DNA of 55,164 nucleotides from assembly GCA_047639615.1 (NCBI GenBank), contig JBLIOL010000001.1:1-55164 (forward strand). The letters are read 5' to 3'. Of the stretch, positions 1-55,164 are shown in pieces (the first letter of the stretch is position 1; each line of letters opens with the position of its first letter). The notes beneath the pieces are model-generated. The model was not told the DNA's origin, ran no database searches, and saw only the letters and a list, made by a program, of their open reading frames with translations. This DNA is from Planctomycetota bacterium (lineage in GTDB: Bacteria > Planctomycetota > UBA1135 > GCA-002686595). The translations under genes were made by a program, and so were the position numbers.

Positions 1-993
1 ATCTACGACTCCAGCATGGGCCTGCCGAGCAACCCCGCGGCGTGGTCAGAGCAAAACCTCTCCGTGGCGCGCGGCCAAATGGGTGCAGCCACAGCTGGAG
101 ATCATGCAGTCTTCGCAGGTGGATTCACCGGCACCGCAGCTAGCGACGCGGTCGACATCTACGATGACGTCAGCGGAACATGGCTCGTCGGTCCCCCCCT
201 CGCGCAACCCCGCGTGGTCCATAGCGGTGGCGTTGGGGTGGGCTCCAAAGCCTACTTCGCCGGCGGATTCGTGGGCCAGAACGTCGCCTCTGACATGATC
301 GAAATCTACGACGCTCAGACTGGAGTCTGGTCTATGGAGACGCTATCGACTCCGCGCGCGTTGATGGGCGTAGCGGCAGTCGGCAATACGGTCCTGTTCG
401 CCGGAGGCACTTCGTCGATTGGTCCCCACGCTACCGTCGATGTGTTCAACCACGGAACCCAGACATGGGGTCCCACCCAACTCCTCTCGGAGGGACGCTT
501 CGCCATGGGAGCTACCGGCCTCGGAGGCAAGGCCCTCTTCGCTGGTGGCGCGACCGACGGCGGGCCAAGCACGCTCGTCGACATCTACGAGCCCGTCGGC
601 GTGAACTTCTGCACGCCGATTGCAAACTCCACAGGCCTCGCCTCCGCCATCACGGTCTCAGGTAGCGACAGCGTGCAAACGAACAACCTCGTCCTCAGCG
701 CCAACTCCTTACCCGCCGGTCAATTCGGTCTCTTCTACCACGGCGACGCTCAAGCCCAGGTTCCTCTAGGCAATGGCATCCGATGCGTGGGCGGCTCCGT
801 CATCCGCATCCTTCCGCCGGCCCAAGCGGACGCAAGCGGGAACCTCGTGGTGGCTCTGGACAACTCCACCGCCGGCGGCCAAGGCATCACCATGGGAGTG
901 ACGCGCCACTTCCAGGCCTGGTACCGAGACCCCGCCGGCGGACCCGCTGGCTTCAACTTCTCGGATGGGATCTCGGTCACCTTCACCCAGTGA
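1..993 (+). CDS. Kelch-repeat protein, 5'-partial (continues upstream of window), ending in the shared FQAWYRD C-terminal module
   Basis: Frame is open from nt 1 (IYDSS precedes the ATG at 16) and aligns with the middle of the paralog at 1497..2981. Repeated 'FAGG..G....VDIYD....W' Kelch-like units. C-terminal 'CTPIANSTG...FQAWYRDP..GFNFSDGISVTF'. Confidence 0.85.
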   Translation: MYDSSMGLPSNPAAWSEQNLSVARGQMGAATAGDHAVFAGGFTGTAASDAVDIYDDVSGTWLVGPPLAQPRVVHSGGVGVGSKAYFAGGFVGQNVASDMIEIYDAQTGVWSMETLSTPRALMGVAAVGNTVLFAGGTSSIGPHATVDVFNHGTQTWGPTQLLSEGRFAMGATGLGGKALFAGGATDGGPSTLVDIYEPVGVNFCTPIANSTGLASAITVSGSDSVQTNNLVLSANSLPAGQFGLFYHGDAQAQVPLGNGIRCVGGSVIRILPPAQADASGNLVVALDNSTAGGQGITMGVTRHFQAWYRDPAGGPAGFNFSDGISVTFTQ

Positions 994-1045
994 TTTAGTT
1001 CCCTCAGCCGTCGCACCGACTACTGGCCGCGTCTGAAACACAAGC

Positions 1046-1090
1046 AACGCCTCGCTGTCCAAGATGGATAGCGAGGCGTTGATTCTTGTA
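1046..1090 (+). terminator. Hairpin downstream of the first Kelch gene (candidate intrinsic terminator)
   Basis: Perfect 11-bp inverted repeat AACGCCTCGCT / AGCGAGGCGTT (1046-1056 / 1070-1080) with a 13-nt loop, followed by the T-containing GATTCTTGT. The U-tract is weak. Confidence 0.45.
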
Positions 1091-1473
1091 CGGGTGCTCT
1101 CAGGAACTAGACCCTAGGCAGGCATGTCGCACTGACTGCAATAGAGACCTTTGGAGCCCGAGCAATCAGCGCAGATGGCGAACCACCTCGGCCATTTAGG
1201 TCTCTGCCTCGTACTGAGCTACGACGTGCGCTGGGCAGCGAACTGAGGAGTGTCCGCGTAGACTAGGCTCAACGATCCTATTGAGGCTGCCGCATCTCCT
1301 GCCAACCGCACCACCAGTGCGCTCGTAACTGTCCGGGGGAGCCATCAAAGGACAAATCGTCACTGATTCGGAAAGTAGTCAGATTCCCTTGCTGGCTTTG
1401 GCCACCCGATTGGAAATTGAGTATTAGCCGCCCGCAAGACAGCACCAGAGCCGGCCCGCGCCCAGTTCGCACG

Positions 1474-1485
1474 CCCCCCCCCCCC
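1474..1485 (+). repeat. Homopolymeric poly-C tract (12 C) 11 nt upstream of the ATG at 1497
   Basis: Read directly, ...gcacg CCCCCCCCCCCC aaggcaacccc ATG. Confirmed by the GGGG runs in two antisense ORF translations covering the tract. Confidence 0.95.
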
Positions 1486-1496
1486 AAGGCAACCCC

Positions 1497-2981
1497 ATGC
1501 TTCGCATTCACTCGCTCCTCTCCAGCCTGGCACTCCTAGCGCTCGCCCAGAGTCCCGCCCAGGCGCAGTGGACCCAGAGCTTCCTCTCAACCGCCCGGCG
1601 AGACATAGCCTCCGTGCAAGTCAACGGCCTGGCGCTCTTTGCAGGCGGTAGAAACGGAACCGGCCTCTATGCAACGGTCGACGCCTACCACAACGCCTCC
1701 AGCGCCTGGGTCTCCATCGGGAACCTCAGCGTTGCCAGAACCGAGCTCGCTAGCACTGCCCTGGGCAACCTAGCCTTCTTCGCCGGCGGAGCCACCAGCA
1801 CGACGACATCCACGGATGTCATCGACATCTACGATGCCTTCACGAATACATGGGCCACCTACAATCTATCCCAGGCGAGATTCGCCCTCTCCGCGATCAC
1901 CGTCGGTAACAAGGTAATCTTCGCGGGCGGCGCCACGGGTGGCCCAATGACGGCAGTGAGCAGCGACAGGGTGGACATCTACGACTCCACCGTTGGCCCG
2001 CCCAACGATCCCCTCGCGTGGTCGCAGAAAACCCTCAGCCAAGCGCGCGGCAACATCGGCGCAGCTACCGCGGGTAGCCAAGGAGTATTCGCTGGTGGCT
2101 TCACCGGCACCACCGCCACCGCCACGGTCGACATCTACGATGACATCAGCGGAACATGGTTTCTCGGACCCTCCCTCTCAACACCGCGCGAAAACTATGG
2201 CAGTACTATTGGGGTGGGCTCCAAGGCCTACATCGCTGGCGGAAGAGTCAACCCTGGTGTGGTCACTGACATCCTTGAGATCTACGACGCCGATACAGGA
2301 GCCTGGACATTGGAGTCGCTGTCGATCGCGCGTTACAGGATGGGCGTAGTCGCGATCAGCAACACGATCCTCTTCGCCGGAGGCGCCGAAACCTCGGTCT
2401 CCGGGCCCCTGACCTTTAATGTCGTCGACGTATTCAACCACGGCACCCAGACCTGGCAGCCCCAGCAGAACCTCTCGCAAGCGCGCTACGCACTTGGTGC
2501 CTCCGGCTTTGGTGACAAGCTCCTCTTCGCGGGTGGCGAAACCGGCTCAGGCAAGACCATCGTCGTCGACATCTACGAGCCCGTCGGCGTGAACTACTGC
2601 ACGCCGACCGCGAACTCCACCGGCAACGCCTCCGCGATGCTCGCCTCAGGGAGCAACAGCCTGCAGGCGAACAATCTCGTCCTCAGCGCCGATTCCCTAC
2701 CCGTCGGTCAATTCGGCATCTTCTACCACGGCGACGCCCAAGCCCAGCTCCCCCTGGGCGATGGCATTCGATGCGTTGGCGGTTCCATCATCCGCATCCT
2801 GCCGCCGGCCCTAGTGGGCCCGAACGGGAACCTAGTGGTGGCTCTCGACTACGCGACCGCAGGCGGCCAAGGCATCGCCTCCGGAGTCACCCGCCACTTC
2901 CAAGCCTGGTACCGGGACCCGACCGGTGGATCTGCCGGCTTCAACTTCTCGGACGGCATCAGCATCACCTTCACTCCATGA
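1497..2981 (+). CDS. Secreted Kelch-repeat protein with shared FQAWYRD C-terminal module (full-length paralog of 1..993)
   Basis: N-terminal signal peptide (LLSSLALLALAQSPAQAQ). Multiple 'FAGG...VDIYD..T..W' repeats. C-terminal 'CTPTANSTG...FQAWYRDP..GFNFSDGISITF'. Confidence 0.9.
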   Translation: MLRIHSLLSSLALLALAQSPAQAQWTQSFLSTARRDIASVQVNGLALFAGGRNGTGLYATVDAYHNASSAWVSIGNLSVARTELASTALGNLAFFAGGATSTTTSTDVIDIYDAFTNTWATYNLSQARFALSAITVGNKVIFAGGATGGPMTAVSSDRVDIYDSTVGPPNDPLAWSQKTLSQARGNIGAATAGSQGVFAGGFTGTTATATVDIYDDISGTWFLGPSLSTPRENYGSTIGVGSKAYIAGGRVNPGVVTDILEIYDADTGAWTLESLSIARYRMGVVAISNTILFAGGAETSVSGPLTFNVVDVFNHGTQTWQPQQNLSQARYALGASGFGDKLLFAGGETGSGKTIVVDIYEPVGVNYCTPTANSTGNASAMLASGSNSLQANNLVLSADSLPVGQFGIFYHGDAQAQLPLGDGIRCVGGSIIRILPPALVGPNGNLVVALDYATAGGQGIASGVTRHFQAWYRDPTGGSAGFNFSDGISITFTP

Positions 2982-7107: not shown

Positions 7108-7851
7108 CTATTGGAACTGCAGCACGTTCGAGAGGTTCGAGGTGGAGCCGTCGCGATACCAGCACTGGAAGTAGAACGTGCTCCCGCCAATCGTCCCGCC
7201 AGGCGGTGAAGGCAGCGCATCGGTCACGTCGTAGCCCGAGCCCACGACCGACGTGCCTGAGAGGTTTTGAAAGACGCCCTGCCCGTCGAATTGACCCAGC
7301 GAGTTGAGCATCCCACCGGCGGTAGGCGAGTAGCGGCCGATGGGCGCTCCCAGGCACAAGTCGCCGTTGCCGACGGAGAGACCTGGGTCCATGACCGTTT
7401 GAGACACGAGGAAGTAGCCAAATTCCATGGGCGGTCCATCCGTGGCCTCCAAGTGCAAGATTCCCGGACCGCTTGAGGTCGACTGCACAAGCGTGACCCG
7501 CCCCCCGGCCGAGTTGATGTTCCCCGGGTCGCAGTGCAGCAGGAAGTGATCGGGCTCGTACTCGACAACGTACGTATCGGGCGACGTGGTCCAGTCGGGC
7601 AGGTCGACCCAAGGACCGCTGTTGAACATGGACGCCACGTTGGCCGAACCAAAATCGTTCGGCTGGTCAATAACCCAGTTGGTGAACCCAAGCGGCTCTT
7701 CCGTCAGCCAACGCCACCCGCCGCCCGGCTCCGAGTAGTCCGGTGCCGACATGTCCTGGTAGAGCCCGATCCAGGTCGAAACATCGAAGTCGATCGTGAG
7801 CAGAAAGTCGAGCTCCGCTTGATCGGTGATCGTCACCAAGTGCCCAGGCAT
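7108..7851 (-). CDS. C-type lectin domain fragment plus shared FQ.WYRD C-terminal module; apparently 5'-truncated, no signal peptide
   Basis: Starts inside a CTLD (GHLVTITDQAELDFL...WIGL...WRW....FTNW...QPND...W.D). The N-terminal third of the lectin fold and any signal peptide are missing. C-terminus 'HCDPGNINSAGG...YFQCWYRDGSTSNLSNVLQF'. The upstream frame runs straight into the tRNA-flank repeat. Confidence 0.55.
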   Translation of the reverse strand: MPGHLVTITDQAELDFLLTIDFDVSTWIGLYQDMSAPDYSEPGGGWRWLTEEPLGFTNWVIDQPNDFGSANVASMFNSGPWVDLPDWTTSPDTYVVEYEPDHFLLHCDPGNINSAGGRVTLVQSTSSGPGILHLEATDGPPMEFGYFLVSQTVMDPGLSVGNGDLCLGAPIGRYSPTAGGMLNSLGQFDGQGVFQNLSGTSVVGSGYDVTDALPSPPGGTIGGSTFYFQCWYRDGSTSNLSNVLQFQ

Positions 7852-7902
7852 ACCGTTGTAGCTATAGCTATCCGCTCCCCCCCGCTCTCTCTCCGCCCCC
7901 CG

Positions 7903-8130
7903 CGGGGCCCCCGCTCCTCCGCGTCAGCAGCAGAGCCAGAAACACATCCTGCCCCCCGCCTCAAAAAACAAGAAGAGCCCGCACCAAAGGCGCGACCTCT
8001 TCCGTGTAAGTGCTAGCGGGGCCCCCGCTCCTCCGCGTCAGCGGCGGAGCCAGAAATATATCCTGCCCTCAGTCGCTAAAAACAGGAAGAGGTCGCGCCA
8101 AAGGCGCGACCTCTTCCGTGTAAGTGGTAG
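7903..8130. repeat. Tandem direct repeat, 2 x 114 bp, covering the 3' flank (terminator) and the last ~11 nt of tRNA-fMet
   Basis: Copy A 7903..8016 and copy B 8017..8130 align without gaps, with 14 mismatches by hand count. The A/B junction carries TGCTAGCGGGG versus the true tRNA 3' end TGGTAGCGGGG. Confidence 0.85.
8075..8117 (-). terminator. Rho-independent terminator of tRNA-fMet
   Basis: On the minus strand, GGAAGAGGTCGCGCC-TTT-GGCGCGACCTCTTCC (15-bp perfect stem) followed by CTGTTTTTAGCG. A degenerate copy lies in repeat copy A (about 7965..8005). Confidence 0.8.
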
Positions 8131-8201
8131 CGGGGGCAGGATTCGAACCTGCGACCTCCGGGTTATGAGCCCGACGAGCTGCCAGACTGCTCCACCCCGC
8201 G
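8125..8201 (-). tRNA. Initiator tRNA-Met (anticodon CAU), CCA encoded
   Basis: 77-nt cloverleaf CGCGGGG-TG-GAGC-AGTCTGGCA-GCTC-G-TCGGG-CTCATAA-CCCGG-AGGTC-GCAGG-TTCGAAT-CCTGC-CCCCGCT-ACCA. C1:U72 mismatch and three consecutive G:C pairs closing the anticodon stem are initiator hallmarks. Close to E. coli tRNA-fMet. Confidence 0.93.
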
Positions 8202-44893: not shown

Positions 44894-46846
44894 ATGGCTA
44901 GCGGATCCCAAGCCAGCCCCATGCAGCACCTACTAAGAACCCCCGCGCTCCGCACCGCCGCAGGTATTTTGGTCGCCTTCGTAGCTCCAGGCGCCAGCGC
45001 TCAAGAGCCCGCGGCGCCTCCCACTGAGTCCCACATCGGTACTCACGTAGCAACCCTGCACGGACTCGAGACGCCCATCGCCACGGCCTTTGGCCCAACG
45101 GGCAAGCTGTATGTGCTGGAGGAGGTCGGCGATCGCGTGAGCATCTTCGGCCCGGACCTCGCGCCCCTCGGCACCCTCGGCGAAGGCCAACTACGCTCGC
45201 CCCAGGGCATCGCCGTGCACGCGGACGGCAGCGTCTTCGTCAGCGACGGCGCCCGCAGCCAAGTCCTGCGCTTTCCTGTATCCGGCGGACCGCCCACCGT
45301 GATCGGCGACTTCGGGGCACTGCCCGGCCAAATGAATCAGCCGCGCGGCCTAGCGCTGCACGGCGACTTGCTCGCCGTAGCCGACACGGGTGGCGGTCGG
45401 GTAGCCCTATACGGAGTAGATGGTGAGTCGCGCGGCGTCATCGCCACTCCCGAACTCAATCGGCCGGTGGACGTGGCCTTCGACGAGCAAGGACAACTGG
45501 CCGTGCTCGACGGAGAGCGGGTACTGCTCTTTGACAAGGATGGCACGCACCTTCAGAGCTTCGGTGCCTGGGGCGCGTTTCCAGGATTGCTATCAAGCCC
45601 GCGCGGTCTGGCACGCTTCGGCGAGCGCATCTACGTCTGCGACACCGAGAATCACCGCGTGCAGGTCTTCGACGCGGAGGGCGGAGCGCTCTACAGTTGG
45701 GGCCTGCACGCCATTCGCCCGCGCGAGGGCAAGGGCAAGCTGCACTATCCCTCCCACGTAGCGCTCAATGCAAGCGGCACCCGCGCCGCCCTACCGGAGC
45801 CCTTGGATGGCCGTGTACAGATCTTCGAACGCGCACCCGGTCCCGAGCCCGAGCCGGATCCTCTGCGCAGCCTACGCGGCAAACCCAGCGCGCACCTCGG
45901 CCAGGACTGGCGCGTCAGCGCCAACCTCATGGCGGCCGTGGAGCCTGAATCTAGGCGCGTGCTCGTGTTCGACCTGCGCCTGATCGAAGGCAAGGACAAC
46001 CCCGTGCAGATCACCACCATCGGTGGCTACGGCCAGGGCCTCGGCTTCTTCGAACGGCCTACTGGCCTTTGGCTCGATGGCCCAGGACGACAACTCTGGA
46101 TCTGCGATGCAGCCCAAGCCAGCCTGACCGAGGTGCACCTGGACCTAGCACCGGATGCCGCACTCGCCGTCAACCCGCTCATGCCCCAGGTCATCCGCAG
46201 CATCGACCTCGCGCGACTGAGCGGCGGTCCACTGCCACGTCCCTTCCCCATCACGCCGCGCGCCGTCGAGAAGCACCCCGATGGGCGTCTCTTCGTGCTC
46301 TGCGAACGCAACCGCGAGGTGCTCGTGCTCAGCCCCAGCTTCGAACCACTGACAGCCTTCGGTGCCGGTGGCGAGGAGCCCCTCATGCGCCCGGTTCAGC
46401 TCGCCTTGTCCCCCGATGGCGAGCAACTCTGGATCGTGGATGAGCTCGCCGGCAAGGTGCGCGCCTTCTCTACGCAGCCGGACAGCATCGGCGTCGAGGC
46501 TGCGAATTTTGACGCAGAAGACGCCCTCGTGCGCCCCTTCGGCATCGCCTTCGGCCCCGCTAACGAGCTGCTCGTCAGCGATCGTGCCAGCAGCCGCATC
46601 CACATCCACGCCGCGGACGGCAGCCATCGCAGCCTCGGCGCACCCGGCATCCGCCACGACGAATTCCTGGCCCCGCGCGCCCTAGGTTTCGATGCATCGG
46701 GCAAGCTCTACGTACTCGACCACGGAAACCACCGCGGCATGGTGCTCGACCCGGCGGGCGCCTTCCACTACGCCTTCGGTCCGCGGCTGTACACGAAACC
46801 CGCGCGCCTGCCCCACACCTACAAGCCAGAGGACTACGCGGAATGA
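44894..46846 (+). CDS. Secreted NHL-repeat beta-propeller protein
   Basis: Repeated 'P.GIA....G.+.V.D..N.R+..F' units (PQGIAVHADGSVFVSDGARSQVLRF, PRGLARFGERIYVCDTENHRVQVFD, PRALGFDASGKLYVLDHGNHRGMVLD). Confidence 0.85.
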   Translation: MASGSQASPMQHLLRTPALRTAAGILVAFVAPGASAQEPAAPPTESHIGTHVATLHGLETPIATAFGPTGKLYVLEEVGDRVSIFGPDLAPLGTLGEGQLRSPQGIAVHADGSVFVSDGARSQVLRFPVSGGPPTVIGDFGALPGQMNQPRGLALHGDLLAVADTGGGRVALYGVDGESRGVIATPELNRPVDVAFDEQGQLAVLDGERVLLFDKDGTHLQSFGAWGAFPGLLSSPRGLARFGERIYVCDTENHRVQVFDAEGGALYSWGLHAIRPREGKGKLHYPSHVALNASGTRAALPEPLDGRVQIFERAPGPEPEPDPLRSLRGKPSAHLGQDWRVSANLMAAVEPESRRVLVFDLRLIEGKDNPVQITTIGGYGQGLGFFERPTGLWLDGPGRQLWICDAAQASLTEVHLDLAPDAALAVNPLMPQVIRSIDLARLSGGPLPRPFPITPRAVEKHPDGRLFVLCERNREVLVLSPSFEPLTAFGAGGEEPLMRPVQLALSPDGEQLWIVDELAGKVRAFSTQPDSIGVEAANFDAEDALVRPFGIAFGPANELLVSDRASSRIHIHAADGSHRSLGAPGIRHDEFLAPRALGFDASGKLYVLDHGNHRGMVLDPAGAFHYAFGPRLYTKPARLPHTYKPEDYAE

Positions 46847-47274
46847 GAGCCCTAGTCCACCTGAGCATTCTCGCGCTGCTGGCCGGCTGCGGTGCGGACG
46901 CCTCGGCTCCCGCACCGAACACGACGCAAGGCACCCTCACGAGCCAGACCGACTCCAACGCCGGAAGCTTCCAACTGCATTGGGACCCAGCCGCCCAGGC
47001 TCCGCCCCTCAACGAGGAGTACGACCTACTCTTTGCCCTGCGCAACACGGACGGAACGCCCTTGGACATCCCGGTGCGCGACCTGAACTTGGATGCGCGC
47101 ATGCCACACCACGGGCACGGCATGAATCAGGATCCGCTGATCGAACGCACGGGCGCTGGTGTCTACACCGCCCGTGGCCTGCGCCTGCATATGACCGGCC
47201 ACTGGGAGGTCTACCTGGACGTGCGCCAGGGCGCCCTCACCGAGCGCGCCGAGTTCACCCTGGAGCTGCAGTAG
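46843..47274 (+). CDS. Small lipoprotein with His/Met-rich motif (YtkA/FixH-like fold suspected)
   Basis: ATGA overlap with the NHL gene. Lipobox LLAGC. 'LDARMPHHGHGMNQDP...GVYTARGLRLHMTGHWEVYLDV'. Confidence 0.7.
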   Translation: MRALVHLSILALLAGCGADASAPAPNTTQGTLTSQTDSNAGSFQLHWDPAAQAPPLNEEYDLLFALRNTDGTPLDIPVRDLNLDARMPHHGHGMNQDPLIERTGAGVYTARGLRLHMTGHWEVYLDVRQGALTERAEFTLELQ

Positions 47275-48542
47275 TGCACGTCCGCAGCCACGCCGCATGG
47301 GTCGCCGCGTGGCTGACCCTGGCCGCCTGCGGCACCCAAGCAACGCCACCCGAGAGCCACGCCCTCGACCCGGCACCGGACACATCCCTCAGCGCGCACG
47401 GCGTGAGCTTCAACGCCAATCAACTGCGCGCCCTCGCGCGACTTACGCCCCTGGGCCCGCCTCCCGCGGACCCCACCAACCGCTGGGCGGACGACCCTGC
47501 CGCTGCCCAATTCGGCCAGTTCCTATTCTTCGAGCCAGGCCTCTCCGCAAACGGCAAAGTCTCCTGCGCTAGCTGCCACCCACCCGAACACGGCTTCTCC
47601 GGCGAGGTCGCACTGGCTGAAGGCCTCGAGCTGGGCACGCGCCACGCGCCCAGCATTCTCGGCGCAGGCCATCAGCGCTGGCTCGGCTGGGGTGGGCGCT
47701 GGGACAGCCTCTGGTTCCAAGCCCTCGGCCCCCTGGAGAACCCCGCCGAAATGGGCACTACCCGCGGCCAGGTGATCGAATTCCTGCGCGCGGACGAACG
47801 CCTAAGCGCTGCCTTCTCGCAGCTTTTCGGCCCGCTTCCGGAGCTCTCGGATGAGCCAGGCGTGGAGCGCGCCTTCGCCCAAGTGGGCAAGGCCATCGCC
47901 GCCTACGAGCGCCGCTTGAACCGCGCCGATGCGCCCTTCGATCGCTTCGCCGCCGCCCTCTTACAGCGCGCCGGTAGCGACCCCGCCGACCTGCAATTGC
48001 TCAGCGCCGAGGCCACCCGCGGCCTCTCTATATTCCTGGGGCGCGGTCGCTGCGTGCTGTGTCACGCGGGGCCGAACTTCTCGGACGGCGAGTTTCACAA
48101 CACAGGCGTACCCCCCGGTCCCGCCGGCAGCTTGGACGACCCCGGCCGGCACCAAGGCGCACCTCTCGTGCGCGACTCCATCTTCAATGCGGCCGGTGCA
48201 CACAGCGATGAGCGCGAAGGCACCGCCGCCTTGCGCGTGCGCGGGCTACGCACCGGGTCGGAAACCTGGGGCGAATTCCGTACGCCCAGTCTGCGCAACC
48301 TCGCCGCGCGTGGACCTTTCATGCACCAGGGGCAACTGACTACCCTGGCCGACGTGGTGCTCTTCTACGACACCCTCGAGGGCTCCGTCGGACGCAGCCA
48401 CCACCAGGAACTGATCCTGGTTCCGCTCGAATTGGGAGCACAAGGCCGGGCCGACCTGTTGGCCTTCCTGCAGAGCCTCGAGGGCTTGCCCCTGGATCCC
48501 GCGTTGATACAGGCACCCGCGGATCCGCTGCTGGCACGTTAG
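47274..48542 (+). CDS. Di-haem cytochrome c peroxidase / MauG-family lipoprotein
   Basis: GTG start overlapping the previous TAG (TAGTG), giving WVAAWLTLAACG (lipobox). Two CxxCH motifs (CASCH, CVLCH). 'FHNTG', 'FRTPSLRN' and 'PFMHQG' are typical of the family. Confidence 0.85.
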   Translation: MHVRSHAAWVAAWLTLAACGTQATPPESHALDPAPDTSLSAHGVSFNANQLRALARLTPLGPPPADPTNRWADDPAAAQFGQFLFFEPGLSANGKVSCASCHPPEHGFSGEVALAEGLELGTRHAPSILGAGHQRWLGWGGRWDSLWFQALGPLENPAEMGTTRGQVIEFLRADERLSAAFSQLFGPLPELSDEPGVERAFAQVGKAIAAYERRLNRADAPFDRFAAALLQRAGSDPADLQLLSAEATRGLSIFLGRGRCVLCHAGPNFSDGEFHNTGVPPGPAGSLDDPGRHQGAPLVRDSIFNAAGAHSDEREGTAALRVRGLRTGSETWGEFRTPSLRNLAARGPFMHQGQLTTLADVVLFYDTLEGSVGRSHHQELILVPLELGAQGRADLLAFLQSLEGLPLDPALIQAPADPLLAR

Positions 48543-48765: not shown

Positions 48766-51324
48766 ATGTCGATTATCTCTCTTCCGGCTAATGGCTGGCG
48801 CACGTTGGCACTCTGCCTGCTTGCCAGCCCCCTCCTTGCTGCGGCCCACGACGACGATCCGAAGATCCTCGATCGCGAGCGCGCCAACGCCGGTCCCGGC
48901 TTCCGCACCTCACTGAGCAGCGGCATGGCGCCCGTGCCCGTGGGCCAGTTCAGCTCCAACGCTGGCTTCCCAGCCAGCGGCGTGTCGCTCCTATCCTGGA
49001 TTCCCCTGGGCCAAATCGACGGCGCGGCCAGCGGCAACGACTGCTGGGGCTACACCTCCCCCTCCGGCAATGAGTACGCCATCATCGGAACGAGCGACGG
49101 CACGGCCTTCTTCGACATCTCGAACCCGGGCAACCCGAACCAGGTGGGCTACATCAGCGGCCCGAACAGCCTCTGGCGCGACATCAAGACCTACGGCACC
49201 CACGCCTACATCGTCAGCGAAGGCGGCGGCGGCATTCAGGTCGTCAACCTAGGCAACATCGACGCGGGCCAGGTCACCTCAGCCGGCACGGTCAGCACAG
49301 GTGGTTCCACCTCGAGCCACAACGTGGCGATCAACACCGACTCCGGTTTCCTCTACCGCCTGGGCGGTGGCAACAACACCGGCCTACGCATCTACGACCT
49401 GAACGTAAGCCCCACCAACCCGCCCTTCGTGGGCGACTGGCTCGATCGCTACGTGCACGACGCACAGATCGTCAGCTACACCAGCGGTCCCTTCGCTGGC
49501 AAAGAGGTCGCCTTCTGCTGCTCGGGCTTCGGTAACGGAAGCACCAGCACCGGCCTGACCATCGTCGACGTCACCAACAAGAACAACCCGGTCGTGCTCG
49601 ACCAGGTCTTCTACCCGAACCCGGCCTACTCCCACCAAGGTTGGCTCTCCGGCGACCGCCAGCGCTTCTACCTGGGTGACGAGCTCGACGAAGACGGCAG
49701 CCTGCCCACCACCACCTGGGTCATCAACGTCGCCGACATCAACAACGCCTTCGTGGAGACCTCCTTCACCAACGGCAACAACTCGATCGGCCACAACATG
49801 TACGAGAAGAATGGTCTTCTCTACCAAGCCAACTACACCAGTGGCCTGCGCATCTTCGACATCGCAGCCAACCCGACCAACCCGCCCGAGGTGGCCTTCT
49901 TCGACACTCGCCCGAGCGATGACAACGACAGCTTCAACGGACTCTGGAGCTGCTACCCCTACTTCGATAGCGGCGTAGTCATCGGTAGCGACCTCGAGAG
50001 CGGGCTCTTCATCTGGTACGCAGGCGATCCTCAGCTGGACGTGCAAATCGTCGGCGGCGCTCCGGACCTACTCGACCCCAATGGCGCGGTGCTAGATATC
50101 ACCATCACCCCGGCAGGCACTGCCAGTGTTGTCCCCGGCAGCGAGACCCTTTGGTACGACATGGGCGCCGGCTTCGTCTCCACGCCCTTGGTGAGCAACG
50201 GTGGCGCGAGCTACGACGGCATCTTCCCGGCCATCATGTGCTCCACCTCCGTCAGCTGGTACATCTCCGCCGAGTCCAACAGTGGCCTCGTCTGGACGGC
50301 TCCGGGCGGTGCTCCCGCCGCGGTCTTCACCTCCGTCACGGCCAGCAGCCTCGACGTGCTTGTGACCTACGACATGCAAGCTGCTGATGGCTGGGTAGGC
50401 GGCGCCGCAGGCGACAACGCCAGCACCGGCATCTGGGAACGCGGCAACCCCAACGGTACCGCAGCCCAGCCGGAAGACGACCACAGCCCCATTGGCCTTC
50501 GCTGCTGGTTCACCGGCCAAGCCAACCCGGGCGATAGCGTGGGCACCAACGATGTGGACGGTGGCACGACCACCCTCCTCAGCCCGGTCATCGACCTGAG
50601 CAGCCTGACCGATCCCCTGATCACCTACTGGCGTTGGTACTCCAACACAGCTGGCGGTGCACCCAACGCGGACATCTTCCAGATCGACATCAGCGACAAC
50701 GGTGGTAGCACCTGGAGCAGCGTCGAAGTGGTCGGACCCTCCGGCCCCGGCACCTCCGGTGGTTGGATCGAGCACTCCTTCAACGTGGCCGACTTCGTCA
50801 GCGCCACCGGCACGGTGCAAATGCGCTTCCGCGCATCGGACCTGGGTACGGGCTCTATCGTGGAAGCCGCCATCGACGACCTGCGCGTCGCTGGCGTGAA
50901 CTGCGGCCCGCCGCTCTTCACTCGCTACTGCGACCCGGCCGTTACCAACTCCGGCTTGATCCCCGGCATGATGGATGCCACCGGCAGTGCTGTCGTAGCC
51001 AACAACAACCTGACCGTGCGGGCCTACCAGCTGCCGGTCAATCAGTTCGGCATCTTCATCACCTCCATGACCCAGGCCAACATCCCCATGGCCGGCGGTA
51101 GCATCGGAACCCTGTGCGTGGGTGGCAACATCGGTCGCTTCGGCGCCCAGCAAATCACCTCCCCCGGTGAGATGAGCCTGACCCTGAATCTGGGCAACTT
51201 GCCCCTGAACCCGAACCAAGCCGCCATGCCGGGCGACACGTTCCACTTCCAGGCCTGGTACCGCGACCTCAACCCCACCGCGGGGTCGAACTTCACGGAC
51301 GGCATCTCGATCCTATTCCAGTAA
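48766..51324 (+). CDS. Secreted choice-of-anchor-B / LVIVD-type beta-propeller protein with MAM/jelly-roll-like domain and shared FQAWYRD C-terminal module
   Basis: Signal peptide LALCLLASPLLAAA. 'NDCWGYTSPSGNEYAIIGTSDGTAFFDISNP...WRDIKTY..YAYIVSE'. Later 'DVDGGTTTLLSPVIDLS...IVEAAIDDLRV'. C-terminal 'YCDPAVTNSG...FHFQAWYRD...NFTDGISILFQ'. Confidence 0.85.
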   Translation: MSIISLPANGWRTLALCLLASPLLAAAHDDDPKILDRERANAGPGFRTSLSSGMAPVPVGQFSSNAGFPASGVSLLSWIPLGQIDGAASGNDCWGYTSPSGNEYAIIGTSDGTAFFDISNPGNPNQVGYISGPNSLWRDIKTYGTHAYIVSEGGGGIQVVNLGNIDAGQVTSAGTVSTGGSTSSHNVAINTDSGFLYRLGGGNNTGLRIYDLNVSPTNPPFVGDWLDRYVHDAQIVSYTSGPFAGKEVAFCCSGFGNGSTSTGLTIVDVTNKNNPVVLDQVFYPNPAYSHQGWLSGDRQRFYLGDELDEDGSLPTTTWVINVADINNAFVETSFTNGNNSIGHNMYEKNGLLYQANYTSGLRIFDIAANPTNPPEVAFFDTRPSDDNDSFNGLWSCYPYFDSGVVIGSDLESGLFIWYAGDPQLDVQIVGGAPDLLDPNGAVLDITITPAGTASVVPGSETLWYDMGAGFVSTPLVSNGGASYDGIFPAIMCSTSVSWYISAESNSGLVWTAPGGAPAAVFTSVTASSLDVLVTYDMQAADGWVGGAAGDNASTGIWERGNPNGTAAQPEDDHSPIGLRCWFTGQANPGDSVGTNDVDGGTTTLLSPVIDLSSLTDPLITYWRWYSNTAGGAPNADIFQIDISDNGGSTWSSVEVVGPSGPGTSGGWIEHSFNVADFVSATGTVQMRFRASDLGTGSIVEAAIDDLRVAGVNCGPPLFTRYCDPAVTNSGLIPGMMDATGSAVVANNNLTVRAYQLPVNQFGIFITSMTQANIPMAGGSIGTLCVGGNIGRFGAQQITSPGEMSLTLNLGNLPLNPNQAAMPGDTFHFQAWYRDLNPTAGSNFTDGISILFQ

Positions 51325-51394: not shown

Positions 51395-53209
51395 TCAGTC
51401 CCGCGCTAGGCGCAACTCAAGCGAGGCAAGCGCCGTCGCCGCAGCCTCGCACACAAGCGGTGATTGATCCTGGTCGACAGCCCGCGCGAGCGCCTTGCGG
51501 ACCGGGTCGGTACCTTCCCAGGCCACCTCTCCCCGCTCGCTGCTGACGCTACCCAGGCTCCCGAGTACCCGCGCAGCCTCCGCTCGTACGCGGAAGTTGG
51601 CCGAGCTATCGCGCGTAGTCCAAGCCAAGGACTCGATCGCGCGCAACTCGCGCACGCCCTCGAAGAGTTTCCACAGACGCGCCCGGTCCGCCACCATGGG
51701 CAATCGCGCGGTGCCTTCCACGAGGGCGCTCCAACTTCCAAGGGCGCGCACGGCGCCAGCTATTTGCGCTGCCGCTCCCAGGTCCCCCTCGATCCCGAGA
51801 GCCTTCACCAAAGCGGCGCCACCCTCCTCCAAGCCACGCATGGCGATAGCCCTAGCTGCCGATTGGCGCACGCCCGGGTGCGAGTCCTCCATCAGGAGCA
51901 GCAACTGATCCGGGTCATCCAATTCGCCTGGCCAAGTGCTGAGCGAATCCAAGGCGGCTACACGCATACTCGGATCCACGCTCGCCGCAGCGAGCTCGAG
52001 CAACAGGCGCGCGCGCACAACCAGCCGCTGATCCGACGATGCACGCCAAGCGTCCAGAGCCCAAACCACATGCAGCCGGCCGAGATCCGTGCCTAGGGAA
52101 CCCATCCAAGGCCGAAAGTTCATGCCCGGTGCTTCGGAGAAGCGCAACTGCGCGGTCGCGATCGCCGGCCGCAGAGCATCCAAACGTTCAACGCCTGCGC
52201 TGGTATCCGCGAACCAAGCCTGCGCGGCCCGCCGCCGGCCCATACTGGCCGAGTCCAAGTCCGCCACGCCAAGGGCATCAGCCGCCTCCTGCGCAGGCGC
52301 CGGATCCGGTGCAGATCGGTTCCACTCAGCGCGCCCTGCCTGCAGCAGGAACAACGCCGCCCTGTCCTCAGCCAGGCCCACGGTATCGGGCCAGATCGAT
52401 CCATCCTCCAACTTCAACCATGCGGAGTCATCCAAGGTCACCGCCTTAGTTCCCCGTTGAATGACCTCGTAGCTGCGCAACTCCGCCTCGCCCGGCTGCA
52501 GCCAAATTTGCCGCCCGCGAGAGCGCTCGGGCCAAGCCGCATCCAAGAGTTGCAGCCCTTGCGCCCAAGTCGGCAGCGCCTGGTAGGAGGGCCTGGGAAA
52601 CAACTCGACACCCGGCAGGATCTGCACAGGCCCGTTCTGTGTGAGCAGAAAGAGGCCCCCACGCTCCGACTCCAGCACTGCGCTGATGCCGGTGTACTCC
52701 GCGCCCAGGTCGCTCCAAGCCTCGCTGCCACCGCGCCAGGCGTGGAGGCCCTGCTCGCCAAGTAACAGCCAATCGCCTAGACCCCGCGCGCCTGTATGCG
52801 AGTGACTCAGGTCCAGATGCACACCGACCGGCAAGCCGACCACTCGCGAGGCATGCGCGCCCGCGCCCGCAGCGCGGGGCAGACTCCAAAGCGCAGACTC
52901 ACCGAGCAGCATGACCACGCCCGGTCCAAGCGCCAGGTCCGTGCAGATCTCCGGCAAGCTCCAGCGCAACAGCTCCTGAACCTCGCCCCTCGTCGCCTGC
53001 CAACGCACCAATTCCGGGGGCTGCTCCGCATCCGCCTGCACCAGGCACCATCCGGCATCAGCCGACTGCGCCTCGAAGCCGGTAACCGGGCCCCATGCCG
53101 CGGGCACCGTCAGCAGATCCACCTTCACACGCGGGCTCTGCACAATCGTCTCAACGTCCTGCACCGGGAACAGGGCCAGGGCCCCCATCATCAAGCTGAT
53201 TCGCATCAC
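51395..53209 (-). CDS. Secreted protein with C-terminal HEAT (PBS-lyase-type) repeats
   Basis: Signal-like MMRISLMMGALALFPV. C-terminal repeats such as 'DSHPGVRQSAARAIAMRG', 'ANFRVRAEAARVLGSLG', 'SPLVCEAAATALASL'. Confidence 0.7.
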   Translation of the reverse strand: MMRISLMMGALALFPVQDVETIVQSPRVKVDLLTVPAAWGPVTGFEAQSADAGWCLVQADAEQPPELVRWQATRGEVQELLRWSLPEICTDLALGPGVVMLLGESALWSLPRAAGAGAHASRVVGLPVGVHLDLSHSHTGARGLGDWLLLGEQGLHAWRGGSEAWSDLGAEYTGISAVLESERGGLFLLTQNGPVQILPGVELFPRPSYQALPTWAQGLQLLDAAWPERSRGRQIWLQPGEAELRSYEVIQRGTKAVTLDDSAWLKLEDGSIWPDTVGLAEDRAALFLLQAGRAEWNRSAPDPAPAQEAADALGVADLDSASMGRRRAAQAWFADTSAGVERLDALRPAIATAQLRFSEAPGMNFRPWMGSLGTDLGRLHVVWALDAWRASSDQRLVVRARLLLELAAASVDPSMRVAALDSLSTWPGELDDPDQLLLLMEDSHPGVRQSAARAIAMRGLEEGGAALVKALGIEGDLGAAAQIAGAVRALGSWSALVEGTARLPMVADRARLWKLFEGVRELRAIESLAWTTRDSSANFRVRAEAARVLGSLGSVSSERGEVAWEGTDPVRKALARAVDQDQSPLVCEAAATALASLELRLARD

Positions 53210-53243: not shown

Positions 53244-55061
53244 TCACCAGCTGACTACATCACGCACGGTCACCACCATGGGCGTGAAGGGCGGCAGATT
53301 GTCCACGGAGTTGAAGGCCGGATCGTAAGCCCAGTTGCGCCCGGGCGCCGTGTAACGATTGCCCCCATACATCCACGCACCCGTGGCGTTGACGCTCTCC
53401 CAGGTGTTCACGAAGGAGCCCGTGATGTTGCACGGGACACCCGTCCAACGCTCGTGAAAGCGCGGCAGGTTCTCGAAGCCACCGCCATAGGTACTGGCCG
53501 TACTGCTCTGGTTACCAGTGATCATGGCCATGTTGTAGGTAGTCTCCGTGGCGGAGGGCAGGCCGCTCGCGGTCTTGCTCCCATCCCATGCATTGGAGAG
53601 CAGGTTGACCCCATCGGCGATCACCGCTGCCCCCTTCTTGTTGGTGATGTTGAAGTCCCCGTGCACGTAGGCCGAACCATCGGTCACCACAGTCAGCTTG
53701 TCCTGCAACTCCGCGCCGCCATTGAGCAGAACGCCCTTGCAGTCGGTGCCCTCGCCCATGCCGTAGTGACTGGCATAGAGCAACCCGTTGACCGGAAAGA
53801 GCCCCGATGCGTTGAGTGCTTCTATGTCGATCTCGACCACCGGTGTGTGCTCATTGGAGCCACCTGACTGGCGCAGGTCGGCAATGGAATCCAGGTCCAC
53901 CACCCCCGCCGCAATCAGCGCCGAGGTCACGCTCGTACCATCCGGCATAGTGTCGACGCCGCCCTCGAGGAAGGCCTCGAAGCTACCCGTGTCCGCGTCA
54001 ACCAGGATCGTCAGCCCCGCATTGTCATGGTAGTAGCCCTTGGCGTGCGTCCCGAGACCCGCCCCTACGAATACGCCCACACCATCGGCACCGAGCACGT
54101 AATCACCGCCATCCTGCGCATCGAACTTCGACACCGAGCCAACCCCAGGAGCGTTGGCCTGGGAGACATCGTGGGCGCCGGTCAGCACCGTCGACCCCAT
54201 GCCCAGCCCATAGCTATCCGCTTGATTCCAGAGTTCGAGCGCTCCCGCCGCGAAGGGCAGTATGTCCAAGGCCCCATCGAAGAAGCCATCCCCATCGGCG
54301 TCGTAGCCCTCCGTGAAGAGACTGTCGTAGCCGGAGCTACTACCAGCCCCCAAGCTCGCGAGCTGTCCCTGGTTGAGCATGTCCACGAAGACCGAAGGCT
54401 CCGAAGGATCGAAGGGATTCGAGACCCATTCGCGAATGCGCACATTGCCCGTGTTGGTGGACCCGTTCTTACGCGAACGATAGATCTCCCCCACCGCGCG
54501 CACGTAGTTCGTGTCCATGCTCAAGGTCCCGCCGCTACCCAAGTACATATCCGCATTGGTGTGCACACGCCCACCGAGAGTCATGCTCGGTCCGGGCGAA
54601 ATCTCCAGGTCATCGTCGTAGAAGACCGCGAACTGAAAGACCGGCGTGGACTCGGTGCCCACCAGGCGGTGCGCGCTGATCGGCACGCCACCCATCTCCG
54701 CCACTGAGCGGATCTCGTAGATCTTGTGCACGGTCTGAATACCTGCCGCGTCCACCAGCGTCTGCTCACCCGCTGGAGCATCGATCACGAAGTCCACCTG
54801 CAGCCCATCGATCAGCACGCTGCCAGCAGCCGGCACGCTCGACCAGTTGGCCACCGCATCCGTAATCTCCTTCTTGGCAGCCTCCGCTGCCCCCTGCGCC
54901 AGATAGCGCGCCTCCACCTGGGAGGTGCGCAATCCCGAGCGCTTGTTACTAACCCCCGCCATGGTGAACATCACAGTCACCATGCCGGCAGCCACAAAGG
55001 CCCCAAAGACCGCGTACAGGAGCGCCACCCCCCGGCGCTCCTCCCTTGCTTGCATGTACAT
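53244..55061 (-). CDS. Large PilX-N-terminal-type (minor-pilin-like) protein
   Basis: N-terminus ERRGVALLYAVFGAFVAAGMVTVMFTMAG...QVEARYLAQGAAEAA resembles the PilX_N anchor. 'PVFQFAVFYDDDLEISPGPSMTLGGRVHTNADMY' is a motif I associate with large PilX-like proteins. Start is ATG 55061 or 55055. Confidence 0.6.
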   Translation of the reverse strand: MYMQAREERRGVALLYAVFGAFVAAGMVTVMFTMAGVSNKRSGLRTSQVEARYLAQGAAEAAKKEITDAVANWSSVPAAGSVLIDGLQVDFVIDAPAGEQTLVDAAGIQTVHKIYEIRSVAEMGGVPISAHRLVGTESTPVFQFAVFYDDDLEISPGPSMTLGGRVHTNADMYLGSGGTLSMDTNYVRAVGEIYRSRKNGSTNTGNVRIREWVSNPFDPSEPSVFVDMLNQGQLASLGAGSSSGYDSLFTEGYDADGDGFFDGALDILPFAAGALELWNQADSYGLGMGSTVLTGAHDVSQANAPGVGSVSKFDAQDGGDYVLGADGVGVFVGAGLGTHAKGYYHDNAGLTILVDADTGSFEAFLEGGVDTMPDGTSVTSALIAAGVVDLDSIADLRQSGGSNEHTPVVEIDIEALNASGLFPVNGLLYASHYGMGEGTDCKGVLLNGGAELQDKLTVVTDGSAYVHGDFNITNKKGAAVIADGVNLLSNAWDGSKTASGLPSATETTYNMAMITGNQSSTASTYGGGFENLPRFHERWTGVPCNITGSFVNTWESVNATGAWMYGGNRYTAPGRNWAYDPAFNSVDNLPPFTPMVVTVRDVVSW

Positions 55062-55164
55062 TCTCAAAGCATCAACTCCCCGTTACGGGGCCCCACTACA
55101 AATTGAACGGCGTACCGAAAGAGCACGCCCTCCGAAGTCCTGCGCCTGAAGTACACCGCGATAC

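Follow-up and report, generated by a model that had tools for sequence, protein, structure and literature searches.

Four open reading frames (ORFs) in a 55,164-nt stretch of planctomycetal DNA (contig JBLIOL010000001.1, positions 1 to 55,164; 65.9% GC; hereafter the window) share one C-terminal module of 130–145 aa. The domain is currently unnamed and belongs to a very large, clade-restricted family; judged from its sequence, it has the behaviour of an address or anchor for the cell surface and is unrelated to known anchors. Terminal address domains of this sort, such as LPXTG, PEP-CTERM, the C-terminal domain (CTD) of the type IX secretion system (T9SS), dockerins and SLH, define how bacterial surfaces are built, and the discovery of each revealed dedicated machinery. 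The module marks a major share of the exported proteins in a deep-branching planctomycetal group, the Saltatorellus clade, whose cells shift shape, fuse and aggregate. To our knowledge, nothing is known of the surface of this clade at the molecular level. We propose, with a probability of roughly 0.5, that the module docks or anchors its proteins by binding to a shared part of the envelope of these same cells.

The same module ends four genes

Alignment of the four copies (Table 1) shows 23 invariant columns, including two Cys, the motifs QFG.F, G..C.G and FQ.WYRD, and the final aromatic residue. In pairwise BLASTP comparisons, the modules of copies 1 and 2 are 79% identical, and copy 4 matches both of them at 38–41% identity (E 1e-16 to 1e-19). 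Copy 3 is the outlier, matching copy 4 at 30% identity (E 7e-5) and showing no significant pairwise match to copies 1 and 2, to which it is tied via the profile alone. This profile was built from 38 database sequences and contains no window sequence. It recovered all four copies, with E-values of 3.5e-50 to 4.1e-21, and the runner-up segment of the window scored E 2.7. Searching the window in all six frames with a hidden Markov model (HMM) of the four copies gave no fifth copy.

These results bear out the central claim of an earlier, sequence-only reading of this DNA, namely that one module ends these four genes. The starts it gave (610, 2598, 7533 on the minus strand, and 50929) are the first conserved Cys codons, with the domain itself beginning 3–4 residues ahead of that Cys, and its ends are the last sense codon. 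Its hand-aligned consensus is correct, and the two Cys it singled out are conserved at 98% and 100% in a 42-sequence alignment and invariant in 125 representatives. Also sound is the attachment to binding or propeller domains, with Kelch, C-type lectin and choice-of-anchor B passengers in the window and similar ones across the family. Other parts of that description need amending. Copies 1 and 2, counted among four otherwise unrelated proteins, are tandem paralogues with 68% overall identity, so the window holds three unrelated passenger types rather than four. Signal peptides, ascribed to three of the four proteins, are visible in two only, those of copies 2 and 4; the N-terminus of the copy-1 protein cannot be seen because the window edge cuts its gene. 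Finally, the copy-4 protein was labelled MAM-like, and Pfam gives no MAM match in it; the matches are to LVIVD, plus TIGR04312, only.

Table 1. Positions of the module copies, their genes and passengers in the window, and of family members elsewhere in which the module is N-terminal or stands alone. E-values of module copies are from the profile of non-window sequences.
Feature	Position	Strand	Remarks
Module-bearing ORF, copy 1	16..993	+	frame open from nt 1
Module-bearing ORF, copy 2	1497..2981	+	
Module-bearing ORF, copy 3	7108..7851	-	
Module-bearing ORF, copy 4	48766..51324	+	
Module copy 1	601..990	+	subtype '...RCVGG...FNFSDG...FTQ'; E 1.2e-43
Module copy 2	2589..2978	+	E 4e-43; template of second AlphaFold model
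Module copy 3	7111..7545	-	most divergent; ~17-residue insertion after IGR motif; E 4.1e-21
Module copy 4	50917..51321	+	subtype '...GxLCxGG.IGR...SNFTDG...FQ'; E 3.5e-50; template of first AlphaFold model
Copy-1 gene, Kelch-repeat protein	1-993	+	5' end lost at window edge; Kelch Pfam matches
Copy-2 passenger	1497..2588	+	Sec signal peptide (about nt 1497-1568, MLRIHSLLSSLALLALAQSPAQAQ; read off the sequence), then Kelch beta-propeller; Kelch_6, Kelch_1, Kelch_KLHDC2 matches
Copy-3 passenger, 5'-truncated C-type lectin domain	7600..7845	-	PF00059, E 7.4e-6
Copy-4 passenger	48766..50916	+	signal peptide (about nt 48766-48846), choice-of-anchor B domain, variable middle region, conserved region aa ~561-716
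Signal peptide–module–PKD–CxxCH domain	L028:300-1397, L040:4875-5972, L051:4923-5972		same architecture in three metagenome-assembled genomes; module at mature N-terminus
Signal peptide–Cys-rich variant module–PETase-like alpha/beta hydrolase	L002:7015-9621	-	module at mature N-terminus
Phage module-only gene	L086:7941-8381	+	also in L087, L088

The module matches no named domain and is predicted to be a beta-sandwich

Scans with Pfam-A and NCBIfam 20.0 placed no model on the module, either in the four window proteins at E ≤ 1 or in 125 diverse representatives at E ≤ 1e-3, and precomputed Pfam labels are empty for proteins that consist of the module only. Against PDB sequences, profiles of 4 and 42 sequences reached a best E of 0.22. 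Full-text searches of the literature (motif strings, Planctomycetes sorting signals, Saltatorellus) found no description of the module. The sequence-only reading had thus been right that the module corresponds to no named domain that could be found in Pfam, NCBIfam, PDB sequences or the literature. It had also said that it would give up its idea if an HMM hit an already described Pfam or TIGRFAM domain; no such hit occurred in Pfam-A or NCBIfam 20.0.

Structure prediction, one of the checks suggested at that time, gave a confident beta-sandwich for both subtypes. The AlphaFold2 model of copy 4 is all-beta with nine strands (predicted local distance difference test, pLDDT, 96.2; predicted template modelling score, pTM, 0.90), and that of copy 2 is likewise all-beta (pLDDT 93.0, pTM 0.87). 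Strand order is identical in the two models, with nine to ten strands. Foldseek comparisons of both models with the PDB, and of one with BFVD, returned generic Ig/FN3-like sandwiches only (E ≥ 1e-3 overall, best E in the PDB 3e-3; template modelling score ≤0.53). Nothing was found at E < 0.001 in the PDB (two models) or BFVD (one model), and no T9SS CTD was among the top 50 matches of either model. As modelled, then, the module is an autonomously folding beta-sandwich of ~130 residues, and the two invariant Cys probably form a disulfide that stabilizes it.

The family is very large and confined to one clade

The scan of public databases that had been suggested as a further check revealed a very large family. 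With HMMER, 18,789 of 1.84 billion cluster representatives (50% identity) matched at E ≤ 1e-3; 11,154 of these remained at a cutoff of E ≤ 1e-10, and 4,491 at E ≤ 1e-30. A single peptide pattern, applied to species-representative genomes, gave at least 591 matches, 569 of which were confirmed. Individual genomes carry dozens of copies. The metagenome-assembled genome (MAG) Bpl_4, for example, has at least 44 spread over 20 loci, and many loci hold 2–5 module genes per 10 kb. The best 79 loci all come from uncultured Planctomycetota MAGs, with the single exception of a contig assigned to 'Glaciecola' (L060). We considered this contig as a sign of wider range and rejected it as mis-binned, because its GC content of 58.5% resembles that of the planctomycetal loci.

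The cultured strain Saltatorellus ferox Poly30 (CP036434.1) has two orthologues of the copy-4 protein, and a module gene lies in it, for example, at CP036434.1:5,651,798-5,654,383. Synteny between the window and the Poly30 locus (NHL, YtkA, CCP_MauG, choice-of-anchor B plus module) places the window in the Saltatorellus clade. All named matches confine the family to Saltatorellus-clade Planctomycetota. These bacteria are deep-branching and diderm, with about 70% GC, peptidoglycan, type IV pili and flagella, and are noted for shape-shifting and cell fusion (bioRxiv 10.1101/817700; PMC11032199); they form aggregates and dwell on marine surfaces (bioRxiv 10.1101/817700). Since Poly30 is cultured and carries the module, hypotheses about its role are directly testable. 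A Pfam or NCBIfam model of the family is also warranted; with it, thousands of proteins now labelled 'hypothetical' in marine metagenomes would be annotated.

Position, passengers and exceptions

The module is nearly always the last part of its protein. It lies 0–5 residues from the stop in all 120 short matches examined, and reaches the last or second-to-last residue in 150 of 150 top representatives. It is C-terminal in 118 of 120 choice-of-anchor B orthologues (the copy-4 architecture) and in 130 of 137 genomic copies, which amounts to about 97% of intact copies. Each protein has one module, and tandem copies were not seen. The claim that it always sits at the very C-terminus therefore holds for the four window copies and for the great majority of the family, and fails for four genuine non-terminal copies. 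The other outcome that had been named as fatal to the idea, an internal position in most homologues, did not occur, as the count of genomic copies shows.

Of the seven non-terminal copies, three are frameshifted or chimeric. The four genuine ones represent two architectures, both with the module at the mature N-terminus (Table 1), and retain all invariant residues. The module also occurs on its own. Complete genes encoding a signal peptide and the module only (P0017, P0071 and P0019) lie amid housekeeping genes. Three large viral contigs, uncultivated viral genomes from IMG/VR (UViG_3300027996_001813 and relatives; L086, L087 and L088; 77–126 kb, 47% GC), encode a 146-aa protein of the same make-up, with scores of 63–65 bits. 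These contigs carry PHROG-supported genes for HNH endonuclease, SSB and tRNA nucleotidyltransferase, with a deoxyribonucleotidase nearby, and their GC content is far under that of the bacterial loci (56–74%). The phage protein might bind or block the envelope partner of the host. The N-terminal and stand-alone modules show that the module is an autonomous unit, which requires neither a free C-terminus nor a passenger.

Sec signal peptides are present in 95 of 136 representatives that start with Met. Passengers are mostly of binding or propeller type, with a few hydrolases. In 125 representatives, Pfam assigned FG-GAP, Laminin_G_3, Kelch, GBD_T9SS_assoc, SBBP, DUF4394, PPC, BNR and Lectin_C, and left many passengers without a match. 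NCBIfam added HAF repeats, choice-of-anchor R, the NxxGxxAF choice-of-anchor repeat, DNRLRE and a 'T9SS-dependent' M6-like family; it found no other named sorting tag in these 125 proteins. 'Choice-of-anchor' families are surface proteins that have alternative LPXTG, PEP-CTERM or T9SS anchors (bioRxiv 10.1101/2023.03.06.531300), so the module occupies the site at which an anchor is expected. A search for remote choice-of-anchor B homologues with other anchors returned orthologues of the same architecture only. The two of 120 choice-of-anchor B orthologues that lack the module have C-termini that are unrelated and unannotated. PEP-CTERM or LPXTG tails were essentially absent from about 0.8 Mb of clade DNA in a crude screen.

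Some metagenomic entries (P0064, P0082, P0107, L042:5404-6102, L047:7383-7757 and L062:7702-8433) have parts of the module joined to unrelated fragments, or are frameshifted. The joined fragments include the N-terminus of a pantoate ligase, the C-terminus of TamB and a protein kinase segment. These entries are probably assembly chimeras or pseudogenes, and they call for caution in any automated census of architectures.

Rapid divergence around invariant polar and aromatic residues

Mean pairwise identity among 116 copy-4 orthologues is 62% in the choice-of-anchor B domain, 58% in the pre-module region, 43% in the linker, 41% in the module and 36% in the signal-peptide region. Across unrelated proteins, C5, N11, S12, G64, C67, R74, G106, F111, Q112, W114, R116, D117 and N125 (copy-4 numbering) are 95–100% conserved. 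Many of these top-conserved positions hold polar or aromatic side chains (N, S, R, Q, W, R, D, N), not hydrophobic residues of the core. In the predicted model, strand 8 closes with W114, R116 and D117, and N125 opens strand 9 of the same hairpin. Rapid change in the scaffold around polar and aromatic residues that stay invariant suggests that the modules recognize a ligand or partner common to all.

Two of the conserved motifs are N-x-S/T sequons. 'N-S-[TS]-G' (positions 11–13, about nt 50947-50955) occurs in 105 of 126 full genomic modules, and 'S-N-[FL]-[TS]-D' (positions 125–127, about nt 51289-51297) in 122 of 126. Going by the motifs, they could serve as N-glycosylation sites, bind a metal or a sugar, or form structural Asx/ST turns. 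The tandem Kelch paralogues (window 1-2981) show the reverse of the between-genome pattern seen for the copy-4 orthologues. Their modules are more alike (79%) than their propellers, at only about 60%. Gene conversion could account for this, as could co-evolution of all modules of one genome with one partner.

Comparison with known address and anchor domains

The module, a predicted beta-sandwich, shares several features with the T9SS CTD of Bacteroidota (Por_Secre_tail, TIGR04183 / PF18962), which is a folded beta-sandwich at the extreme C-terminus of Sec-exported proteins, present once per protein and tens of times per genome. Passengers are very diverse in both cases (GBD_T9SS_assoc, SBBP and choice-of-anchor among them), and overall identity is low, with few conserved motifs. 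Yet the module matches neither TIGR04183 nor PF18962, is longer (130–145 aa), has two invariant Cys, and occurs also at the mature N-terminus (L028, L040, L051 and L002) and as a stand-alone secreted protein. We know of no T9SS in Planctomycetota, and nothing resembling the T9SS machinery (PorV, Sov, PorU) was found in the window or the 79 loci.

By analogy, the dockerin–cohesin system is functionally closest to the role that we favour. There, a single terminal module, at either end of many unrelated secreted proteins, attaches them non-covalently to a common scaffold, as we propose here. The dockerin is a ~70-aa duplicated calcium-binding helical motif, whereas the module is a predicted beta-sandwich of ~130 aa; neither a dockerin match (PF00404) nor a cohesin-like partner was found for it. 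SLH and other non-covalent cell-wall-binding domains are also terminal and autonomous, can be N- or C-terminal, and tether diverse exoproteins to an envelope polymer. SLH (PF00395) shows no sequence or fold similarity to the module, however, and usually comes in triplets, whereas the module is always single.

The tags of the PEP-CTERM/exosortase and LPXTG/sortase systems take the same position and serve the same passenger families (choice-of-anchor B and R, HAF, DUF4394). They are short and tripartite (motif, transmembrane helix, basic tail), unlike a folded module. In all four window copies, the maximum Kyte–Doolittle value over 19 residues is 0.76–1.26 and the last 8 residues contain no Lys or Arg. 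The likeness to PEP-CTERM (TIGR02595 / PF07589) fails because the module has neither hydrophobic helix nor basic tail, and none of the four copies has the features of an LPXTG sortase signal. PPC (PF04151) is another small C-terminal beta-sandwich of secreted proteins, whose role in secretion or binding is debated. It does not match the module, and the two are distinct units, because both occur together in 2 of 125 proteins, with PPC upstream. More broadly, no HMM of the dockerin, SLH, PPC, carbohydrate-binding module (CBM) or lectin families covers the module in the proteins scanned; the PPC and Lectin_C matches fall in passengers.

A docking role and its alternatives

The sequence-only reading had called the module a sorting or anchoring domain, comparing it with T9SS CTDs and PEP-CTERM. 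What stands is the notion of a common address on exported proteins, given a single, C-terminal domain that accompanies Sec signal peptides dozens of times per genome; what falls is the PEP-CTERM likeness and the idea of an obligate C-terminal signal. Sequence features make an anchoring or docking domain seem a better fit than a sorting signal. In the mechanism that we envisage, the passengers (Kelch and FG-GAP propellers, lectins, LamG and choice-of-anchor domains, a few hydrolases) would be exported via Sec, as their predicted signal peptides suggest. The module would fold in the oxidizing periplasm or outside the cell, as its two invariant Cys imply. N11, S12, R74, Q112, W114, R116, D117 and N125 would then bind one common envelope partner, perhaps a glycan at the surface, perhaps a scaffold or a protein of the outer membrane; diverse passengers would thereby be kept at the cell surface. 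Such a module would nearly always be the last domain, yet would work without a free C-terminus.

Several points weigh against this proposal. The near-exclusive C-terminal site, with 0–2 residues past the last strand, is stricter than a simple binding domain predicts. The faster divergence of the module (41%) than of passenger domains (58–62%) among orthologues fits a disposable tag too. No partner gene was found: in a clustering of all ORFs of the 79 loci and the window, with antisense shadow frames removed, no family recurs beside module genes beyond 10 of 79 loci. Lastly, binding to the cell's own envelope and binding to an external ligand are not distinguishable by the sequence and model analysis used.

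A short tail (0–2 residues in most copies), one copy per protein, Sec signal peptides and dozens of copies per genome would also be expected of a cleavable C-terminal secretion signal. Such a signal would be read by a hypothetical translocon in the outer membrane, or a hypothetical sortase, of the Saltatorellus clade; after transit it would be cut off, or swapped for a covalent anchor, in analogy to the T9SS CTD. Consistent with this, some passenger families serve elsewhere as cargo of T9SS or PEP-CTERM systems; the module outpaces its passengers in divergence yet keeps short invariant motifs, as sorting tags do; and its predicted fold is a beta-sandwich, like that of T9SS CTDs. We nonetheless find a cleaved signal unlikely. 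Intact modules sit at the mature N-terminus in two architectures, and the tag-only secreted proteins of bacteria and phage would carry no cargo. Neither a sequence match to T9SS CTDs nor a CTD among the top 50 Foldseek matches was obtained, and candidate machinery was not found near module genes at the 79 loci. Equally doubtful to us is a lectin- or CBM-like domain that, with its passenger or alone, would bind something outside the cell, for example particles of marine polysaccharide, other cells or prey, instead of the producer's own envelope. Most passengers are already binding or propeller domains, not enzymes. The module is neither tandem (one per protein) nor mid-protein, unlike most CBMs, and matches no CBM or lectin family by sequence or fold. 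Moreover, its single-clade range and its replacement of the anchor in choice-of-anchor families point to a cell-specific partner. An outward-facing lectin would, on the other hand, suit a beta-sandwich with conserved Trp, Arg, Asp and Asn that can be placed N- or C-terminally, is secreted as a free module-only protein and is fused to at least one hydrolase (L002, PETase-like), in a clade that aggregates and lives on marine surfaces (bioRxiv 10.1101/817700).

We regard as improbable a purely structural or oligomerization domain, that is, a dimerizing or stalk-forming beta-sandwich with no common external partner. The generic Ig/FN3-like sandwich is in keeping with it, since such domains are often spacers or self-association units, but spacers are usually tandem and internal and seldom keep invariant polar residues across thousands of unrelated proteins, and module-only proteins would be purposeless. 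That the resemblance arose by chance, from low-complexity composition at 66% GC or as an artefact of assembly we count as already refuted. Some metagenomic matches are indeed chimeric or frameshifted (L042, L047, L062 and P0064), but E-values from an independent profile go down to 1e-50, homologous clusters number 18,789, a cultured strain carries the module in its complete genome with synteny kept, and the fold predictions are confident.

The docking role could be part of something larger, which we put forward more tentatively than the docking role itself. The module may be the address tag of an undescribed surface sorting or attachment pathway that only the Saltatorellus clade has, with a function like that of the T9SS CTD or of dockerin–cohesin. 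An envelope receptor would then organize dozens to hundreds of adhesin-like proteins on unusually plastic, shape-shifting, fusing cells, and a phage would have acquired the stand-alone module as a means of exploiting or blocking that receptor.

Genes beside the module genes

The sequence-only reading had suggested looking for a co-occurring, dedicated sortase or secretion gene. None was found beside the module genes of the window and the 79 loci, and the window as a whole contains no secretion or sortase gene. The recurrent neighbours are a kinase-WD40 family, which ranks top (10 of 79 loci), a sulfatase, an ABC ATPase, FG-GAP/ASPIC proteins and PolA; the remainder is locus-specific synteny. 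The Ser/Thr kinase-WD40 neighbours (L043:3-3914 and nine other loci) fit the kinase expansion reported for this part of Planctomycetota (PMC11032199), and are probably unrelated to the module.

Near copy 4, a minus-strand gene (53244-55067) encodes a 607-aa protein with an N-terminal hydrophobic segment, 54% identical to the product of a Poly30 gene. This Poly30 orthologue heads a cluster with a prepilin-type (N_methyl) gene (L082:12724-15807). In the window, an extra HEAT-repeat gene (51395-53209) sits between the copy-4 gene and the gene at 53244-55067. We considered a link between pseudopilins and the module and did not use it as evidence, because the adjacency is limited to one syntenic locus.

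Carrier genes and surroundings in the window

The copy-1 gene, read from nt 1, aligns to the copy-2 protein from residue 161 onward. In the copy-4 protein, the choice-of-anchor B match (TIGR04312; E 2e-92, 310.3 bits versus a cutoff of 100) spans aa 65-416 (nt 48958-50013) and profile positions 7-361 of 364. The conserved region farther downstream (aa ~561-716) is the part that had been labelled MAM-like.

The copy-3 gene has no signal peptide, and its Lectin_C match opens at profile position 17 of 107. The same 247-aa call appears in two further assemblies (L080 and L081). Upstream of this gene lies a tRNA-Met(CAT) gene (8125-8201, minus strand), followed by two tandem ~110-bp copies (about 8124-8016 and 8013-7905) and then directly by the truncated lectin-plus-module gene. 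Each ~110-bp copy starts with the last bases of the tRNA-Met gene and holds a terminator-like hairpin. From its sequence, this region (7900-8201, minus strand) looks like an att-type duplication or rearrangement scar, which may explain the truncation of the copy-3 gene.

The rest of the window is ordinary chromosome, with shikimate pathway genes, enolase, panC, folK and a MoxR/DUF58/BatA/VWA cluster, and it further holds PQQ and NHL propellers and a MauG-type peroxidase. The ORF of this peroxidase (46692-48542) is over-extended at its 5' end, and the CCP_MauG match starts only at residue 270. It overlaps a separate 143-aa ORF (46843-47274), at the place where Poly30 (L082) has a YtkA-family gene between NHL and CCP_MauG.

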